Positions 25,085 to 57,726 of a stretch of 62,079 nt of DNA are shown in pieces. The notes under the pieces were generated by a model that was given only the letters and a program-made list of their open reading frames with translations, was not told where the DNA came from and did no database searches. The DNA comes from an uncultured Pseudomonadota bacterium (GTDB lineage: Bacteria; Babelota; Babeliae; Babelales; RVW-14): contig CAYMBP010000002.1 in assembly GCA_964388745.1 (NCBI GenBank), forward strand, positions 20,854 through 82,932. Reading direction: 5' to 3'. Made by a program: the position numbers and the translations under genes. Every line of letters starts with the position of its first letter. Position 1 is the first letter of the stretch.

Positions 25085-25340
25085 TGCGGCCCGATGAGTT
25101 ATTTTGTAAACTAAGTTGAGGTTAAAAATAGAAGTTTATTATATTATCTATAGCAAAGAATCTTGACTAATTAATACAGCTCTAATCTATGGGGCATTCT
25201 CTGCGAACAAGGTGAGCATAAGAATCTAGTCCTTATTTGTTTCAAAAATCTTCACGCTCGCTTTAGCTTGTTGAGAGTAACGATCAAAAATGTGTATTAA
25301 TTTAAAAAAACTTTGCTATAAAAATTATGGAGGTTATGTC

Positions 25341-26915
25341 ATGTTATACCGTAACATAGGACTTTTAGCTCTTGCTCTTGGATGTATAACACCATCCGCT
25401 TATTCTATGCAATCAGAAAATGAAAAGGCTGAAAATACTTCATTCTGGAGTACAATCTATAATGGTGCAAATAGTGTTAAAACGTTTTTTACAGGAACTC
25501 CATCATCCGAATCTCAATCAACAGCCCCAGCAAATCCAAAAACTCAAGCAAAAAATGATAACAACCAAAAAAAAATAGATAATGAGCTTACACAAAATAT
25601 TATAAAAACCCTTGAGCAAACTCCTCTGTCTCAAAGTCCATCAACTACAACAACCCAAGAAAAAATAGCTGCAGAAAACACTGCGCCTCCAGCAGATAAG
25701 ACTGGTGATGCTCAAAATAATGATGATGTAGAAACTGAAGATGAAGCTGATAACAAAGACGAAGCTGATAACAAAGAAAAAATAGAACCTACTAACGCAA
25801 AAGAGAACTTAAACAATCAAGCTCTACCTACTCCAACGCAAGAAGAAATATCAAGCGCTGCAGATAAAAATACAAGCCCAGAGTTAGGAGAAAGTTCTAA
25901 CCCTATTCTTATCAATTCAGAATCAGACGAAGTAACTGTTCTGCGTGAAAAAGAATTTGATGAAATAAAAAAAGAGTTTGTCCAAAAAGAACAAGAATTA
26001 AAAGAAAAAGAGAACTTAAACAATCAAGCCCTACCTACTCCAACGCAAGAAGAAATATCAAGCGCTGCAGATAAAAATACAAGCCCAGAGTTAGGAGAAA
26101 GTTCTAACCCTATTCTTATCAATTCAGAATCAGACGAAGTAACTGTTCTGCGTGAAAAAGAATTTGATGAAATAAAAAAAGAGTTTGACCAAAAAGAACA
26201 AGAATTAAAAGAAAAAGAACAAAGCCTTAATAATGCAAAAGCTCAACTCAACAATGAAAAATCTGAACTTAATGCACAAAAAGAGAATCATAATCGAAAC
26301 AATATTGCAGCGCATGCTTGGTTTGAGCAAGAAAAGCAAAAGCTTAACGAAAAAGAACAAGAATTAAAAAAGAGAGACAGAGAGCTCTTAATCAGAGAAA
26401 ATGATCTTGAAAATGATCTTAGAGACAGAGAGCTTCTTAATAACTCAATAACTCAAGAACGCGAAGCGGCAACCAAAAGAAATTTTACTCAGACAAACAC
26501 TATCAGCGATCTTCAATTAAAGAATCAAGAACTTGCAAAACAGAACAGTACGCTGCAACAAGAAATAAATCGTTTTAAGCAATTAGTTGAGACGCTTCGC
26601 CAACAAAATAAGGAACTTATTCAAAAAAATAATACTCTCAAAAATCAACCCCAAAACCCAGCTATACCCCAGCGTCAACATCTTAATATAACGGTTCCAA
26701 TGTTTCAATCATGCGATAATGGCGTTTCTGTGGCTCAATTCTTTGCTTGGTGTAACACAACCCTTAATAAACCAGACCTTCCAATAAAAATAAAAGATGC
26801 CATAAAGAATGCCTTAACAAAGAACATCGGAAGCAAATATTTGAAAAAACCAGAATTCGTTAGTGGCATACAAATGTATAGAAATGCCATTGTAGCAGCA
26901 ATTAATAATGCTTAG
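25341..26915 (+). CDS. Secreted (possibly lipid-anchored) coiled-coil protein with an internal 69-aa duplication
   Basis: GGAGG at 25329-25333 precedes the ATG at 25341. The signal peptide MLYRNIGLLALALGCITPSAYS carries a lipobox-like ALGC. The central region is acidic and the second half is a long Gln/Glu/Lys/Asn coiled coil. Confidence 0.7.
   Translation: MLYRNIGLLALALGCITPSAYSMQSENEKAENTSFWSTIYNGANSVKTFFTGTPSSESQSTAPANPKTQAKNDNNQKKIDNELTQNIIKTLEQTPLSQSPSTTTTQEKIAAENTAPPADKTGDAQNNDDVETEDEADNKDEADNKEKIEPTNAKENLNNQALPTPTQEEISSAADKNTSPELGESSNPILINSESDEVTVLREKEFDEIKKEFVQKEQELKEKENLNNQALPTPTQEEISSAADKNTSPELGESSNPILINSESDEVTVLREKEFDEIKKEFDQKEQELKEKEQSLNNAKAQLNNEKSELNAQKENHNRNNIAAHAWFEQEKQKLNEKEQELKKRDRELLIRENDLENDLRDRELLNNSITQEREAATKRNFTQTNTISDLQLKNQELAKQNSTLQQEINRFKQLVETLRQQNKELIQKNNTLKNQPQNPAIPQRQHLNITVPMFQSCDNGVSVAQFFAWCNTTLNKPDLPIKIKDAIKNALTKNIGSKYLKKPEFVSGIQMYRNAIVAAINNA
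25803..26216 (+). repeat. Tandem direct repeat, 2 x 207 bp, in frame
   Basis: Copy 1 (25803-26009) and copy 2 (26010-26216) differ at 2 positions by eye: GCT/GCC (silent) and GTC/GAC (Val/Asp). A separate 18-bp tandem GAAGCTGATAACAAAGA(C/A) x2 lies at 25744-25779. Confidence 0.9.
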
Positions 26916-38439: not shown

Positions 38440-39756
38440 ATGATTAAAAAAAGTATTTTTTGTTTGTTAATTCTTGCAAATGGATCATTATTTGGAATGT
38501 ATCACATACCACAAAGCTACCAAAGTATCAAAAAAATTAGCCCTAAATTAATTCAAGCATATCCAAAAAGTCACCTCTTAAATCATCAACCAAAACGTCA
38601 TGATTACAATAATAACCAGACTTATGCTCATAATAAAGCATGTCTCAATAATACATTGCCACCACTCCTCCCTCTCTTTGCAATAACTTTATTTGGAATA
38701 TTGAGTAACGACAACTCAAACATAAATGAAGCTCAACCAAGACTCAGCATTGAGGAGCAACAATGGCTATACATAAAACAAGAAATCTTAGCACTTCTTA
38801 CAGAAGCACAGCTAGAGCAAGAGTGTGAACTTCTAGAAAAAATTATGCAAGAATTACATAACAACATAAACACAGAAGCAGCATTCTATACTATCCGATC
38901 AACAAGAGAATTTTTTAAAGATAGACAAGAAAAAATCAATCAGCATTCTGCCAATCCAGAAACACATAAAATCAATCACATTTTTTGTAAAGAGAGTGAA
39001 CTTGAATATCTTATTGCCAATGCCCCTTCTGCAGAGAAAGTTGTAGGTCAGATACTGCTTGTTCTCCTTAGAAAAATAGATGAATGTCCATTGCATTGCA
39101 AGCTTTTCTCTGACAATTTTTGGAATTCATATCCTGCACAATTTTCAGCACAAACAATTAAACAAGTTATTTGTGACCCAGCTCTAACAAGCTATGTAGA
39201 TATGCAACTTTCTGATTGTTTTTACCAACACACCCCAGGTAGTGTAGAATTATTAAACATTCTTTCTCAAAAAATTGATCTTAGACATGACCTTGATCTT
39301 GACCTGAAGGAAGCACGAATATCTTCGCATGAATACCTACTTAGCGAAAAAACGCTTAAAAAAAATAGAGTATTAATAGAAGACACTATCTTTGCTTACT
39401 ATCTTATAGAAGTCTTACAAAAAGCAGATACCCTCAACCTACCGAATCCTATCTGCAGTCCAAATTTTTTACTCAAACTTCTTGGACAATTTACACCGCA
39501 AGCAAAAACTTTATTTTTTGAGGCTCCTCTTTCATTGAAACAAAATGTTGAGCTATGCAGGATTGTTCGTTCAATAAGAGGCTCAATTCCTGAAGAAAAT
39601 TGCCCCCTGAGTTGCTACACCGAACCTCTGCTTCATACAATAAATGAGAAAAGCGTAGCGGTTCACTTGTTACAAAAAAAAATTACTAAAGAAATGGAAA
39701 ATCAAAAGCTTCAAAGCAAGCAACAAAGCAACTTAAACGAGGAATACAAAAAATGA
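38440..39756 (+). CDS. Secreted/membrane hypothetical protein, tandem family B2 member
   Basis: AAGGA precedes the ATG at 38440. Signal peptide MIKKSIFCLLILANGSLFG, with a second hydrophobic segment LPPLLPLFAITLFGIL. ELEYLIANAPSAEKVVGQILLVLLRKIDECPLHCKLFSDNFW matches a block in 40051-40719. Confidence 0.65.
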   Translation: MIKKSIFCLLILANGSLFGMYHIPQSYQSIKKISPKLIQAYPKSHLLNHQPKRHDYNNNQTYAHNKACLNNTLPPLLPLFAITLFGILSNDNSNINEAQPRLSIEEQQWLYIKQEILALLTEAQLEQECELLEKIMQELHNNINTEAAFYTIRSTREFFKDRQEKINQHSANPETHKINHIFCKESELEYLIANAPSAEKVVGQILLVLLRKIDECPLHCKLFSDNFWNSYPAQFSAQTIKQVICDPALTSYVDMQLSDCFYQHTPGSVELLNILSQKIDLRHDLDLDLKEARISSHEYLLSEKTLKKNRVLIEDTIFAYYLIEVLQKADTLNLPNPICSPNFLLKLLGQFTPQAKTLFFEAPLSLKQNVELCRIVRSIRGSIPEENCPLSCYTEPLLHTINEKSVAVHLLQKKITKEMENQKLQSKQQSNLNEEYKK

Positions 39757-40034
39757 AGAAAGTCACTGTTTTTTGGCTATTTTTATGTTATCAGCAGGCA
39801 AATGCAATGCTCAAAACATTTGCACACAATCGGATTACTCAGCAGCCTCCTTCATTAATCAGTCAGCATCAATCCGTATTGTCAACAACCCAAAAAGAAT
39901 CTACAACTCTGAATGCAGAATTGATAAAGAACAACCACAAAATTCGGCCATCAAGCAACTCTTCTGTAGCTGAGGCACTTTTTATTAGGGTGCAGCACAG
40001 GCACACTCCTATGGAGTATCTTATCCATTCATGA
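39753..40034 (+). CDS. Signal-peptide N-terminal fragment of a family B2 gene (probably split from 40051-40719)
   Basis: Signal peptide MKKVTVFWLFLCYQQANA followed by a Gln/Ser-rich linker, as in 38440-39756. It has an ATGA overlap with the preceding gene and only 93 codons. Confidence 0.45.
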   Translation: MKKVTVFWLFLCYQQANAMLKTFAHNRITQQPPSLISQHQSVLSTTQKESTTLNAELIKNNHKIRPSSNSSVAEALFIRVQHRHTPMEYLIHS

Positions 40035-40854: not shown

Positions 40855-42036
40855 ATGGATGATCATATGCTTAAAAAAATAATAATTCTTATTACCATAT
40901 TTTCTATGTCTCTAGCTTCAGCAATGAACAACGGCAATAACCAAAATGATGAAAACAACTTACAAACACCTCCTCGCAATCATATGAGATTTAAGAACCC
41001 AGAAACTCCTCAAGGAAGAAGTCCTGCTACTTATTGGAAAGATGTCTATCAAAGGCTAAAATCGATAGGCTTTTCATCTCTAAAAAGAAGGGCTCTTTTT
41101 GCAAATGAGAATACAACAGATGAAAATCGTCCAGAAACTCTGCTTGAAAAGGCTTTAACAGATTCTATCAATAAGAGCAGACATTTTTATATCACAGAAG
41201 GATATGTTTTTAGTCACTCTCTTGATTTAAATACAACTTTTCATGTTAATGCACTTACAAACATGAATAAAGAGTCTGAGTACAATATTTTTCACTATCT
41301 TATTATGTTGAATTCGATCGAAATATGCAATAACCTTCTAAGCAATCTTAAAGAAATTATTTATAGTAATAACAAAGAAGATGGTCATAAAAAGTTAGTT
41401 TCTCAAATTTCACCAAATCATGGAACACCATATCACATAGCAGTAGATAATAAAAATTTTTCACTTATTTGCTGGCTCACCGAACACTTTAAAGCCGATC
41501 TTACAGCTACTGATGAAGATTGGGATCCAATACTTCATTATGCTATAACAAAAAAATCTAGTGAAGAAATTATTGGCCACTTAATTCATGCTGGAGCAGA
41601 CATCAATCAACGCAATTGCAACGATGGTAACACAGCACTCCATATTGCTATGAGAGAAAAACATTACACAGCAATTCTTCTCCTTGCCAGGTGTAAAGAT
41701 TCTCCACCAGATATGGCAATGCCGAATTCTCGTAATTACCTTCCTCTTCATCTTTTTGTAATGGGTCCAGAAACAGAGGATTCTATTGCATATTTAAGAA
41801 TATTTATGAGAATTATGAGAAGAACCAACAACAATCAAGGTACCAATTTATATATTGACGCAGAAGATTCTCAAGATAGAACGGTTTTTGACTTGCTTCG
41901 TTTAAACAATAATCGAGTACTTTATGGCATCATTAGGTACACCCGGCAATGGCCAGTGCATCGAGACAGCATTCCACGTGGAAAACGTCTAGTACATTTG
42001 AGCTGGGCAAATTCGTCAAGAAGAAGACGGAATTAG
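40855..42036 (+). CDS. Signal-peptide ankyrin-repeat protein
   Basis: The N-terminus is MLKKIIILITIFSMSLASA (an alternative start is at 40867). ANK units include GTPYHIAVDNKNFSLICWLTEHFKADLTATDEDWDPILHYAITKKSSEEIIGHLIHAGADINQRNCNDGNTALHIAMREKHYTAILLLA. The tail is Arg-rich (SSRRRRN). Confidence 0.8.
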   Translation: MDDHMLKKIIILITIFSMSLASAMNNGNNQNDENNLQTPPRNHMRFKNPETPQGRSPATYWKDVYQRLKSIGFSSLKRRALFANENTTDENRPETLLEKALTDSINKSRHFYITEGYVFSHSLDLNTTFHVNALTNMNKESEYNIFHYLIMLNSIEICNNLLSNLKEIIYSNNKEDGHKKLVSQISPNHGTPYHIAVDNKNFSLICWLTEHFKADLTATDEDWDPILHYAITKKSSEEIIGHLIHAGADINQRNCNDGNTALHIAMREKHYTAILLLARCKDSPPDMAMPNSRNYLPLHLFVMGPETEDSIAYLRIFMRIMRRTNNNQGTNLYIDAEDSQDRTVFDLLRLNNNRVLYGIIRYTRQWPVHRDSIPRGKRLVHLSWANSSRRRRN

Positions 42037-55749: not shown

Positions 55750-55796
55750 TAATGCATTAAATAATCACCTGGCATAAAACAGCACAGAAGGAAGTT

Positions 55797-56789
55797 ATGC
55801 ATCACTCATTTGTCACTCCTCTTATTTTTACACTTTTCTTTTTTTGCACCAATATTCAAGCAATGAATCTCTTCCAACAAAGAGAAGATTCTTCTACATC
55901 AGTTAGCAAACTTGTAGAACATCATCATATTGCAAAGGACTCACTTGACGAACTTGTTATTGCGGGAATTAGATTAATCAATTCTATTGGTTACCAATTT
56001 AAAGCACTGGCTGGAAATGGAATTCAAGCTTACAATGTCACCTATACACTACTCAATCCCCGAAATCGACTTCACCTTTTACGGCAGCCATGCTCCACAC
56101 GCTACCTTTGTCGAGAGCTTTTGGCCTATTTCAAGGGAAGCCTGCAAGTTAATGAAGGCCTTGCCCAAGCCTCAAAAATTTGGCAGTCTTTAGCAGATGA
56201 AAAAGGATGCATTAATTCAAATTATGGCTACTATGTCTTTCATCAAAGAGTACCTGAGTTTGATAATAAAACACAATATGAGTGGGTCATTTCTTGCCTT
56301 TTAAAAAATCCAGACTCTCGAAAAGCATTTATTAATATCAACCAGCCCTTGCATAAACGTCTTTCATCTAAAGATTTTCCTTGTACTCTTGGCATGCAGT
56401 TCTTTATTCAAGAGAAGCATCTCTGCTCTGTTATTTCTTCAAGAAGTACAGATATTTTTACTGGACTTCCCTATGATATGGGATTCTTTTCACTTGTAAC
56501 AGAACTTGTGTATCAAGATTTAAAAGAAAGAAATCCTACAACTTTTGCAGATTTACAGCTTGGTTATACAAGCATGAAGACTAACTTTACGCAAATTTAT
56601 GATAAAAAAAAGAAAAATGCTTTTGAGCTACTCAAAAGTCCTCTTATTAATGATGCTAACAACATTGAGACACTTAACATTAAAATGCCTCGTATTGAAT
56701 CAGCTCAAGATACATTGCACGATATTTATAATGAAACTCAAAACAGCCCAATCATGAAATGGATCTACACACATGCACAACTCAATTAA
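55797..56789 (+). CDS. Divergent thymidylate synthase/dCMP-hydroxymethylase superfamily protein with a hydrophobic N-terminal segment
   Basis: These blocks align by eye to E. coli ThyA: RELLAYFKGS (ELLWFLQG), IWQSLADEKG..NYGY (IWDEWADENG..VYGK), LKNPDSRKAFININ (LKNDPDSRRIIVSAWN), and FPCTLGMQFFIQEKHLCSVISSRSTDIFTGLPYDMGFFSLVTELV ([45 protein letters not shown]). Confidence 0.65.
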   Translation: MHHSFVTPLIFTLFFFCTNIQAMNLFQQREDSSTSVSKLVEHHHIAKDSLDELVIAGIRLINSIGYQFKALAGNGIQAYNVTYTLLNPRNRLHLLRQPCSTRYLCRELLAYFKGSLQVNEGLAQASKIWQSLADEKGCINSNYGYYVFHQRVPEFDNKTQYEWVISCLLKNPDSRKAFININQPLHKRLSSKDFPCTLGMQFFIQEKHLCSVISSRSTDIFTGLPYDMGFFSLVTELVYQDLKERNPTTFADLQLGYTSMKTNFTQIYDKKKKNAFELLKSPLINDANNIETLNIKMPRIESAQDTLHDIYNETQNSPIMKWIYTHAQLN

Positions 56790-57186
56790 ACCTAAAAAAA
56801 TAGCAGCCGCAGTTATAGAACAAGGTGATAAAATTTTAATTGCACAACGTAGCAATAAAAATGATGGGCTTGAAAATAAGTGGGAATTTCCTGGCGGAAA
56901 ACAAGAACCTGGAGAAACGCTTCAAGAATGTCTTAAACGAGAACTTTATGAAGAGTTTGGCATTGTCGCAAAAGTAGGAGAATATATTACCTGCAGCGCT
57001 TTCACTCACAAAAATACTTATTTTGAAATGGAAGTCTTTAAAGTTCCTTCATTTACAGGAACCATTACGCTTTTTGAACATAAAGAAATTCGATGGATAA
57101 CTCGCAAAGAGTTACCAAATTTTGACTACCCCCAACCAGATTTACCAATTGTTGAATTGCTCATGAAAGAAAACCCCTCTCTTTAA
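56773..57186 (+). CDS. MutT-type NUDIX hydrolase
   Basis: The Nudix box is GGKQEPGETLQECLKRELYEEFGI. The overall layout matches MutT/NudG (KIAAAVIEQGDKILIAQR...WEFPGG). It overlaps the upstream gene by 17 nt. Confidence 0.85.
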   Translation: MHNSIKPKKIAAAVIEQGDKILIAQRSNKNDGLENKWEFPGGKQEPGETLQECLKRELYEEFGIVAKVGEYITCSAFTHKNTYFEMEVFKVPSFTGTITLFEHKEIRWITRKELPNFDYPQPDLPIVELLMKENPSL

Positions 57187-57204: not shown

Positions 57205-57726
57205 ATGTTTACAGTTTATAACCGACAAGCACTGCTTTCTTTATTTTGTTTTCTATCTCAACTCATTACTCTACAAGCACAACAATGCTATATTCTTACG
57301 CCTAACACTCTTAAAAAAGTTTATAAAAAAAAGTTTCCTAATAACCAAATAGAACAAGATATTTTATTTGGCAAATGTGCAGAAATCAGGGAAGCCTTAA
57401 AGGCCGCTCTATCTATCAAATGCAACTCAATTGAGCAAGCATTAACCAAGGCTGGCTTTGTTAAAGCAAAGAGGCTAATAGCTTGCGAAAAACCAGAATA
57501 TATTTTGCATGAACGACTCTCCCAATCGACCCTTCCTGAAACACTTTCAGTAAATTTTAGCACTTTGCTTTATCAGCATTTCATCAAAAACCTTGAAGAA
57601 TATTTCCCACCAAACAGACTAAAAACAATCCTACAAATTAACCTCAATAATGAGACAGCATCTTGCTCTTGTTTTTTTGTTCAAGAAATAGAAAAGGCAT
57701 CTCTTTCTCAACAAATTAAAGAATAA
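57205..57726 (+). CDS. Secreted hypothetical protein
   Basis: 173-aa ORF. The signal-like N-terminus is ALLSLFCFLSQLITLQA. No family recognised. Confidence 0.55.
   Translation: MFTVYNRQALLSLFCFLSQLITLQAQQCYILTPNTLKKVYKKKFPNNQIEQDILFGKCAEIREALKAALSIKCNSIEQALTKAGFVKAKRLIACEKPEYILHERLSQSTLPETLSVNFSTLLYQHFIKNLEEYFPPNRLKTILQINLNNETASCSCFFVQEIEKASLSQQIKE

Follow-up and report, generated by a model that had tools for sequence, protein, structure and literature searches.

Pyrimidine hydroxymethylases of the thymidylate synthase (TS) superfamily are known from phages, where they serve DNA hypermodification, and from a small number of antibiotic pathways in actinomycetes and clostridia. In phage T4 the deoxycytidine monophosphate (dCMP) hydroxymethylase (dCH), gp42, works with the dCTPase gp56 and the dNMP kinase gp1, while MilA and BcmA belong to the mildiomycin and bacimethrin pathways, with MilB as the N-glycosidase. 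Further TS homologues, the flavin- and O2-dependent 5-hydroxy-dCMP synthases RB69 gp48 and DLP3 gp80, also act on dCMP (PMC13326640). Here we describe two overlapping genes in a 62,079-nucleotide stretch of contig CAYMBP010000002.1 from an uncultured bacterium (assembly GCA_964388745.1), referred to as the window. Their products, a TS-fold enzyme and a Nudix hydrolase, probably cooperate, as a cassette, in making and handling a C5-hydroxymethylated cytosine nucleotide, a reading to which we assign a probability of roughly 0.6. The genes and the signals at their start are as follows.

55797..56789, + strand: TS-fold gene, 330 amino acids, predicted cytosine-nucleotide C5-hydroxymethylase
56773..57186, + strand: Nudix hydrolase gene, 137 amino acids, NudG/CTP-pyrophosphohydrolase-like, without a leader
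56773..56789, + strand: 17-nucleotide overlap of the two open reading frames (ORFs), from their coordinates
55788..55794, + strand: Shine-Dalgarno-like AAGGAAG upstream of the first ATG (55797), read from the sequence
55797..55862, + strand: hydrophobic leader, residues 1-22 MHHSFVTPLIFTLFFFCTNIQA, followed by Met23; non-globular in the structure model, with a pLDDT of about 50

The two ORFs and their overlap, noted in an earlier examination of the bare DNA (the sequence-only reading), are borne out by the coordinates. The overlap implies that the genes are co-transcribed, and their translation is probably coupled. The long, Shine-Dalgarno-supported start chosen in that reading also holds, as a motif scan found AAGGA ahead of the ATG at 55797 and nothing comparable ahead of the internal ATG at 55863. 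The TS fold proposed there was recovered by Pfam, the protein matching PF00303 with an E-value of 6.8e-19 and 68.5 bits against a cut-off of 24.3, while the six NCBIfam thymidylate synthase equivalog models gave 27-62 bits against cut-offs of 108-405 bits. On these profile scores the protein is a member of the superfamily and, by the curators' criteria, not a ThyA. A homologue search returned 259 homologues, and all source names for the clade read 'thymidylate synthase'. The closest solved sequence is T4 dCH (65 bits, E 5.3e-17; 77 bits with the family profile), followed by E. coli TS (42 bits; 63 with the profile) and MilA (37 bits; 49 with the profile). An AlphaFold2 model built from an alignment of 120 homologues, on which all residue counts below are also based, reached a mean pLDDT of 91.8 and was unstructured only at residues 1-30. 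Foldseek placed MilA (5jnh) at the top, with 317 aligned columns that include the C-terminal helices and a TM score of 0.66-0.69, then T4 dCH and then ThyA structures, with a probability of 1.00 to TS, dCH and MilA structures. Thus, the analogy to T4 gp42 with gp56 and to MilA, drawn before any search was run, stands on both sides, T4 dCH being the best sequence match and MilA the best fold match.

Identity within the clade is ~50% across phyla, against ~20-24% to any characterised enzyme, and in a library of 50%-identity representatives 191 proteins matched at E ≤ 1e-30, of which ~35-45 are full-length members above 200 bits, the whole superfamily giving 7265 matches. In a phage genome collection the best tblastn identity to the window protein was 31-35%, so that the clade is not just a copy of phage dCH. 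By profile scores, fold ranking and signature residues it is a separate, conserved and misannotated cellular clade, and its chemistry, that of cytosine-nucleotide hydroxymethylases, is inferred with fair confidence. No paper describing the clade was found in the literature searched, and searches of Dependentiae papers gave nothing specific on thymidylate, thyX or folate.

The residues that carry this assignment are listed below with their conservation and their counterparts in characterised enzymes.

Within 56373..56384, + strand: C196, catalytic Cys, the nucleophile; 120/120
56373..56384, + strand: D193-F-P-C196, with Asp three residues before Cys; aligned to SDFMC of T4 dCH
56217..56225, + strand: S141-N142-Y143 (Ser-x-Tyr), dCH S94/Y96, aligned to INSNYGW of T4 dCH; 120/120
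56475..56477, + strand: D227, base discriminator, equivalent to TS N177, dCH D179 and MilA D186; ungapped GLPYD/GLPFN/GFRND
56115..56117, + strand: E107, equivalent to TS E58 and dCH E60; 120/120
56442..56453, + strand: R216-S217-T218-D219, equivalent to TS R166-S167-C168-D169; R216, S217 and D219 each 120/120
56319..56324, + strand: R175-K176, phosphate-binding pair from the partner subunit (TS R126'/R127'); R175 is Arg in 119/120
56592..56600, + strand: Q266-I-Y268, at the position of the sugar-binding His-x-Tyr of TS, dCH and MilA
56007..56009, + strand: L71, at TS R21 (phosphate-binding Arg); Arg in 90/120, Leu only in the window protein

The strings singled out from the sequence, FPCTLGMQF, NPDSRK, SSRSTD, GLPYD, ALAGNGI and TNFTQIYDKK, are all in the translation. 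The signature of hydroxymethylation proposed from the T4 dCH ternary complex combines an Asp at -3 from the catalytic Cys with a Ser-x-Tyr motif, in which Ser or Thr stands two residues before the catalytic-base Tyr (PMC6400193). The Asp at -3 is a marker of hydroxymethyl, not methyl, products (PMC6400193; PMC13326640), and the D145N variant of T4 dCH is inactive (PMC6400193). In the window enzyme, which reads K-D193-F-P-C196, D193 occupies the position of dCH D145 and TS L143 and is conserved in 120/120 homologues, as is the Ser-x-Tyr. The residue that discriminates uracil from cytosine (TS N177, dCH D179, MilA D186) is the last of the GLPF(N) loop (PMC5175136, PMC13326640), and the loop aligns without gaps, window RSTDIFTGLPYD against RSNDVVFGFRND, placing D227 at this site. 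It is Asp in 118/120 homologues and Asn in P0078 and P0081. The sequence-only reading had sought the discriminator in the GDTHLYSNH/TNFTQIYDKK block and concluded that neither Asn nor Asp was in place; both statements were mistaken, the block being the sugar-3'-OH-binding His-x-Tyr, here Gln266-x-Tyr268. With an Asp present at the discriminator the prediction is, therefore, more specific than that reading thought. The two Asn-discriminator homologues (P0081 at L006:6001-7669 and P0078 at L046:907-2643) are the only ones of their kind and retain the leader as well as both parts of the hydroxymethylation signature; their substrates may be uracil nucleotides.

The remaining pocket residues place the enzyme between TS and the hydroxymethylases. 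E107 stands where TS E58 and dCH E60 serve in activation of methylene-tetrahydrofolate (PMC6400193), W129 matches TS W80, an active-site residue near C5 (PMC13326640), in 120/120, and R216 (TS R166) is an Arg conserved across TS, dCH and the clade. In TS the hydrophobic residues Leu143 and Trp83 shield the active site for hydride transfer (PMC6400193; PMC13326640). The position of TS W83 and dCH V85 is taken by L132, which is Leu, Ile or Val in 119/120 homologues and aliphatic as in dCH, while an invariant Thr197 lies at the position of TS His147. The change D169N is diagnostic of flavin-dependent 5-hydroxy-dCMP synthases (PMC13326640), and since D219 (TS D169) is kept in 120/120 the clade does not belong to that class. 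S217 and R175 (positions of MilA A176 and K133') are Ser in 120/120 and Arg in 119/120, a deoxyribose-type pair: Ser/Arg is found in deoxyribose-preferring enzymes whereas MilA and BcmA have Ala176/Lys133', and a swap reverses the preference of MilA (PMC5175136). Gln and Tyr at positions 266 and 268 are found in all 115 sequences covering the site, and the change of His to Gln is specific to the clade. The loss of the N-terminal Arg, claimed earlier, is true of the window protein (L71) and does not extend to the family, most members of which keep the Arg. Gln266 throughout the clade and L71 in the window protein are two departures from every characterised relative. The enzyme has the Asp at -3, the Ser-x-Tyr and the Asp discriminator of the hydroxymethylases and lacks their sugar-contacting His-x-Tyr.

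By analogy with these relatives, Cys196 would attack C6 of the cytosine nucleotide, Asp227 would bind and protonate the cytosine base, and Glu107 would open or activate methylene-tetrahydrofolate, which would add one carbon at C5. Water activated by Asp193 with Ser141 and Tyr143 would then hydrate the exocyclic methylene, and the products would be the 5-hydroxymethyl nucleotide and tetrahydrofolate, not dihydrofolate. As tetrahydrofolate would be released, dihydrofolate reductase would not be needed. Serine/glycine interconversion is reported for Dependentiae genomes (PMC4776705), and we take it to reflect a serine hydroxymethyltransferase, an enzyme that could by itself regenerate the hydroxymethylase cofactor. 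The substrate is slightly more probably dCMP than anything else, the preference suggested by Ser217/Arg175 being weak; CMP holds a smaller share of our expectation and is kept open because of the Gln266 change and a CTP synthase in a Bacillus operon described below.

The second protein of the pair matches the NUDIX family PF00293 (Pfam, E 4e-19) and carries the complete motif of the fold.

56896..56964, + strand: intact Nudix box GX5EX7REUXEEXGU, G42...I64 GKQEPGETLQECLKRELYEEFGI, read from the translation

Its best solved relative is the E. coli CTP pyrophosphohydrolase 2rrk (83 bits, 1.8e-22, residues 4-131), followed by 3gwy, a putative CTP pyrophosphohydrolase, while the match to E. coli MutT is much weaker (35 bits, 8.7e-8). 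Similarly, the best NCBIfam model is that of the pyrimidine (d)NTP diphosphatase PRK10546, at 101 bits and under its cut-off of 156, and the MutT models score 72-75 bits. The protein had been called a MutT-type Nudix hydrolase from its sequence; the domain was right, and the type is better described as NudG-like. By sequence, both enzymes point to cytosine nucleotides. A NudG-like hydrolase would cleave cytosine nucleoside triphosphates, and in doing so it could either, like T4 gp56, produce the monophosphate substrate (d)CMP from (d)CTP or keep a 5-modified triphosphate from the cell's own polymerases. A nucleoside triphosphatase (NTPase) is the self-resistance gene of a nucleoside-antibiotic cluster (PMC12691670). 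Among PADLOC models the Nudix protein hits the phage defence candidate PDC-S07 (3.1e-39), a stronger match than it has with any NCBIfam model, and the TS-like protein hits none. A reading of the pair as a defence system was not adopted, its sole PADLOC match, PDC-S07, being an untested candidate in the literature searched.

Compared with T4 gp42, the window enzyme shares the TS fold, the catalytic Cys, the Glu, the Asp discriminator, the Asp at -3, the INSNYG motif and the Thr after the Cys, and the two systems share the pairing with a nucleoside triphosphate (NTP) pyrophosphatase, to which Patescibacteria add a nucleoside monophosphate kinase. In contrast, identity is only ~24%, the clade is cellular, the folate loop is GLPY and not GFRN, Gln replaces the sugar-binding His, a MilA-like C-terminal helical extension of ~60 residues and a Sec-like leader are present, and the partner is a Nudix hydrolase in place of the dCTPase gp56. 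MilA and BcmA are likewise bacterial, MilA is the best fold match including the C-terminal extension and has Asp at both the discriminator and the -3 positions (PMC13326640), and the free-living relatives of the window enzyme stand in biosynthetic-looking operons. However, the ribose pair Ala176/Lys133' of MilA and BcmA is absent from the window enzyme (Ser217/Arg175), the sequence similarity of 37-49 bits is below that to T4 dCH, and the partner of MilA is a glycosidase whereas that of the window enzyme is an NTP pyrophosphatase. E. coli ThyA has in common the fold, the catalytic Cys, Glu58, Trp80, Arg166, Ser167, Asp169, the GLP(F/Y) loop and the dimer Arg pair, but from ThyA to the window enzyme Asn177 becomes Asp, Leu143 Asp, Trp83 Leu, His147 Thr and His207 Gln; the ThyA C-terminal tail sequence is missing and the scores fall far under the equivalog cut-offs. 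RB69 gp48 and DLP3 gp80 are also TS homologues with N177D and an acidic residue at 143, but their diagnostic D169N is absent here (D219 invariant) (PMC13326640).

Among Nudix proteins, E. coli NudG (Orf135) is the best solved relative, of equal size and with an intact Nudix box, but the window protein lies under the equivalog cut-off (101 against 156 bits) and its kind is always operonic with a TS-fold gene. To our knowledge E. coli nudG is not operonic with a TS-fold gene. With ThmC of the Photorhabdus 4'-thiothymidine cluster, where an NTPase destroys a toxic triphosphate and protects the producer (PMC12691670), the likeness is one of logic only, as that cluster has no TS-fold enzyme. By predicted function the clade belongs with T4 gp42 and MilA, and it stands outside the T4 dCH, MilA/BcmA, ThyA and 5-hydroxy-dCMP synthase groups as these are defined. 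Its own features are the Gln in place of the sugar-binding His, the TS-like folate loop, the MilA-like C-terminal extension, an obligatory NTPase partner and, in one phylum, the Sec-like leader.

The partnership was examined in 38 loci from species-representative genomes, in which ORFs were called and neighbours clustered. In 10/10 Dependentiae-type loci with an Asp discriminator (the window, L008-L014, L021 and L040) the Nudix gene lies 3' of the TS-like gene and overlaps it by 14-35 nucleotides, while in the two Asn227 lineages the Nudix gene is missing and the next gene encodes an adenylate kinase of housekeeping type. Loci from Firmicutes, Enterobacterales, Patescibacteria and Bacteroidota have PF01931 in the Nudix slot, an NTPase that is unrelated to Nudix and belongs to the inosine/xanthosine triphosphatase family, a non-homologous replacement by the same kind of activity. 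The pairing with an NTP pyrophosphatase, pointed out in the sequence-only reading, is conserved within the phylum with Nudix, and its logic recurs in other phyla with PF01931. Chlamydiales provided three copies, none with an adjacent NTPase.

Other neighbours vary with the phylum. TLC/NTT nucleotide transporter genes stand on either side of the pair in two Dependentiae-type metagenome-assembled genomes, MAGs L012 and L013 (L012:5977-8748; PF03219, 4.2e-21). A guanylate-kinase-like kinase stands beside the TS-like gene in Patescibacteria, some Clostridia and Muribaculaceae. In Patescibacteria the TS-like gene lies between kinase and NTPase, near NDK. The kinase found there (P0098, P0089 and P0093) is a divergent P-loop protein of guanylate-kinase-like type, and P0098 (473 amino acids) carries it as an N-terminal fusion to the enzyme. 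L007 (5422-6897) has a second Nudix gene and NDK nearby. In Enterobacterales and Bacillus (L023, L037, L026, L030 and L018/L003, from Erwinia, Ewingella, Edwardsiella, Dickeya and Bacillus cytotoxicus) the TS-like gene is the first of an operon with the PF01931 NTPase, a YjjG/PynA-like pyrimidine 5'-nucleotidase, a TRZ/ATZ-type deaminase-like amidohydrolase, PurN and an MFS or EamA exporter, and the Bacillus cytotoxicus operon ends with a CTP synthase paralogue. The gene content suggests that a 5-modified pyrimidine nucleoside is made and exported, and no description of the operon was found. Its identity with the Photorhabdus 4'-thiothymidine cluster was considered and rejected, that cluster being without a TS-fold gene. 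Thermoactinomycetaceae (L016, L017, L019 and L020) combine a radical-SAM protein, the TS-like enzyme, the NTPase, an amidohydrolase and three ATP-grasp enzymes, two of which are of the L-amino-acid-ligase type, and this suggests a peptidyl-nucleoside as product. In Acetivibrio a LOG/TIGR00725-type protein is encoded 3' of the TS-like gene.

The hydrophobic leader is present in 66/120 homologues, comprising essentially all full-length Dependentiae-type sequences, and is absent from Firmicutes, Enterobacterales and Patescibacteria homologues. A Sec-type signal peptide has a basic N-terminal region, a hydrophobic core of 7-15 residues and small residues at -3 and -1. In most leader-bearing homologues Lys or Arg precedes the hydrophobic core and small residues follow it (...ASALA|QE, ...GVFA|MD), whereas the leader of the window protein has no Lys or Arg before the core. 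Close homologue pairs keep the leader at the protein level, which argues that it is translated, and the comparison indicates a conserved feature and not a start-codon artefact. No leader was found among the copies of the Nudix partner examined. Leaders occur in about one third of the window ORFs; hisS, the galE-like gene and the genes for replication and transcription have none. In Chromulinavorax destructans signal peptides are reported on 44% of the coding sequences and on 78% of ankyrin proteins (PMC6561590). Thus, the leader, which had been noticed from the sequence as unheard of for this fold, is real and unusual for a TS fold, yet it is ordinary for the phylum and typical of its putative secretome. 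Two other leader-bearing window proteins, an ankyrin-repeat protein (40855..42036; Ank_2, 8.9e-22) and a RING/U-box-like zinc-finger protein (28846..29745; 1.4e-5), contain eukaryote-type domains typical of host-directed effectors. In several window ORFs (25290-26915, 28846-29745, 37586-38368, 38413-39756, 39753-40034, 40855-42036 and 55797-56789) a Met directly follows the leader (SILA|MQ, LASA|MN, NIQA|MN). The same is seen in 26/60 TS-like homologues, with Glu or Asp next in 20, a modest enrichment (26/60 and 19/51, 37-43%, against 23-30% in control windows, the sequences not being independent). This Met may represent a second start codon or a cleavage-site preference.

Sequence comparison suggests that the TS-like enzyme is exported. 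In the role that we tentatively prefer, at well under even odds, the enzyme would leave the cytoplasm, and the Nudix, staying there, would shield the bacterium, an importer of host nucleotides. The modified nucleotide would then be made outside the bacterial cytoplasm, in the periplasm or in the host. This role is preferred because the leader is on one partner only, the free-living relatives stand in exporter operons, transporters neighbour the pair and phages carry it as a moron-like unit. A stronger form is doubtful: the exported dCMP/CMP hydroxymethylase would be an effector that rewrites the cytosine-nucleotide pool of a protist host, the coupled cytoplasmic Nudix would protect the parasite as it imports nucleotides via NTT transporters, and the pair would be a 'poison plus antidote' moron spread by phages.

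Phage carriage is seen on three IMG/VR contigs (L047/L075, L048/L076 and L049) that hold a leader-bearing TS-like gene with an overlapping Nudix gene.

L075:1-14800, L076:1-10358, L049:1-5946: phage-like contig spans, with the cassette inside the structural (head-gene) module

The TS-like proteins of these contigs show 53-55% identity to the window protein and 64-68% to a Dependentiae MAG, and all their signature residues are intact. Genes on the flanks encode a portal (phrog_156, 2e-33), a major head protein (phrog_1357, 9e-34) and a tail-like protein. The L075 cassette is encoded on the other strand from all the structural genes and occupies another place than that of the related L076, which is how morons behave. 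Only the two cassette genes are common to the phage contigs and the window; therefore the window locus is not a prophage and the pair moves as a unit. A prophage origin of the locus was also rejected on other grounds, its GC content being unremarkable and its neighbours being hisS, galE-like and polysaccharide genes. Other ORFs of the phage contigs also have Dependentiae-style leaders, and L075, L076 and L049 may represent phages of Dependentiae. Two further contigs (L050:673-1961 and L051:3393-4681) encode a phage TS homologue of 276 amino acids, 36-41% identical to the clade, beside a dCMP-deaminase-like gene; with INSNYG, KDFPC, an Asp discriminator and His-x-Tyr, its sequence is intermediate between the clade and T4-type dCH.

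Several observations weigh against a hydroxymethylation cassette with an exported enzyme. The 'extremely conserved' sugar-binding His (TS H207, dCH and MilA H216) is Gln266 clade-wide, and the sugar specificity, even the exact substrate, may differ. The phosphate-binding Arg is lost in the window protein, the GLPY folate loop is like that of TS and unlike that of dCH, and the long MilA-like C-terminal extension could close the active site. The CTP synthase paralogue of Bacillus points to entry through a ribonucleotide (CTP to CMP), not dCMP. Export is predicted from a sequence pattern only, an exported folate-dependent enzyme would need methylene-tetrahydrofolate outside the cytoplasm, and the coupling of its expression to that of a cytoplasmic Nudix would be easier to understand for two enzymes of one compartment. 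The adjacent or fused guanylate-kinase-like kinase of Patescibacteria points to onward phosphorylation, which suits not export but a T4-like precursor pathway. Such a pathway, rather unlikely in our estimate, has the same enzymology with another fate for the product: the Nudix would convert dCTP to dCMP, the enzyme would make 5-hydroxymethyl-dCMP and cellular kinases would carry it to the triphosphate, giving the bacterium and its phages DNA with 5-hydroxymethylcytosine that could, for example, resist nucleases the parasites release against host DNA. It would make the pair a functional analogue of gp42 and gp56, and is in keeping with T4 dCH as the closest sequence relative, with the Patescibacteria gene order and the P0098 fusion, with the carriage of the cassette by phage contigs, and with the retention of the family across many Dependentiae-type lineages of ~1 Mb genomes, in which the serine/glycine interconversion, read as above, would recycle the cofactor (PMC4776705). 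In contrast, the Sec-like leader of the Dependentiae-type enzyme, phage copies included, is ill-suited to a cytoplasmic precursor enzyme, no kinase is linked in any Dependentiae-type locus examined, and the free-living operons hold a nucleotidase and exporters and no kinases. Moreover, E. coli NudG prefers 5-methyl-dCTP, and a NudG-like enzyme would then destroy the modified triphosphate. If the T4-like pathway did operate, 5-hydroxymethylcytosine replacing part or all of the genomic cytosine in Dependentiae and some Patescibacteria would be the first cellular example.

Two other proposals change the reaction itself. A cytosine-nucleotide C5-methyltransferase of the XP12 type would make 5-methyl-dCMP, which a dCMP deaminase would turn into dTMP, bypassing dUMP and dUTP. 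This is improbable, although N177D turns TS into a dCMP methylase (cited in PMC13326640), the GLPY loop and W129 are TS-like, these bacteria have a nucleotide-salvage lifestyle (PMC6561590, PMC4776705), and canonical thyA or thyX was not seen in the 62-kb window. Asp193 replaces the water-excluding Leu143 and the Ser-x-Tyr is present, both of which mark hydroxymethylation, D145N abolishes the activity of T4 dCH (PMC6400193), Trp83 of TS has given way to the small aliphatic L132 as in the T4 enzyme, and the Dependentiae-type loci link neither a deaminase nor a dihydrofolate reductase to the gene. A divergent housekeeping thymidylate synthase converting dUMP to dTMP is what the source annotations state, the PF00303 threshold is exceeded, and two lineages combine an Asn discriminator with a following adenylate kinase. 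This possibility, already disfavoured, is very improbable, and the suggestion in the sequence-only reading that the enzyme is not the housekeeping TS is upheld. The scores of 27-62 bits stand against ThyA equivalog cut-offs of 108-405, Asp227 (118/120), Asp193 (120/120), Thr197 and Gln266 replace Asn177, Leu143, His147 and His207, and both sequence and fold group with the hydroxymethylases. In Enterobacterales and Bacillus, which possess canonical thyA, the gene is an accessory one in exporter operons.

The window itself has a GC content of 0.32-0.40 and resembles an ordinary chromosome of a low-GC bacterium. Its ORFs, many of them leader-bearing, include hisS, a galE-like gene, glycosyltransferases and genes of the size expected for a primase and a sigma factor. 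The nearest relatives of the TS-like protein carry the names Candidatus Babeliales or Dependentiae, and the sequence was found in four DNA runs only, from an aquatic metagenome. Neither thyA, thyX, folA, glyA, comEB nor kinases were evident among the 57 window ORFs by N-terminal inspection and partial Pfam coverage, the 62 kb being a small part of the genome. A promoter and terminator scan returned no more sites than shuffled sequence. A leader-bearing ORF of 173 amino acids (57205-57726) starts 18 nucleotides past the Nudix stop and may share the Nudix transcript, but it is not kept beside the pair in other loci.

The clade is cellular and is kept across a phylum of obligate parasites, occurring also in Chlamydiae, Patescibacteria and, sporadically, free-living bacteria. 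Its invariant change of His to Gln at the sugar site and its hybrid TS/dCH folate loop offer a natural variant for enzymology, and experiments could start from its export-type leader, its Nudix or NTPase partner, its fusions to a kinase and its phage copies. If the hydroxymethylation cassette is as proposed, metabolic reconstructions that credit these reduced genomes with thymidylate synthesis would be wrong, and a modified cytosine nucleotide would be made in cells that live on imported nucleotides, with their own DNA or the host as its target.

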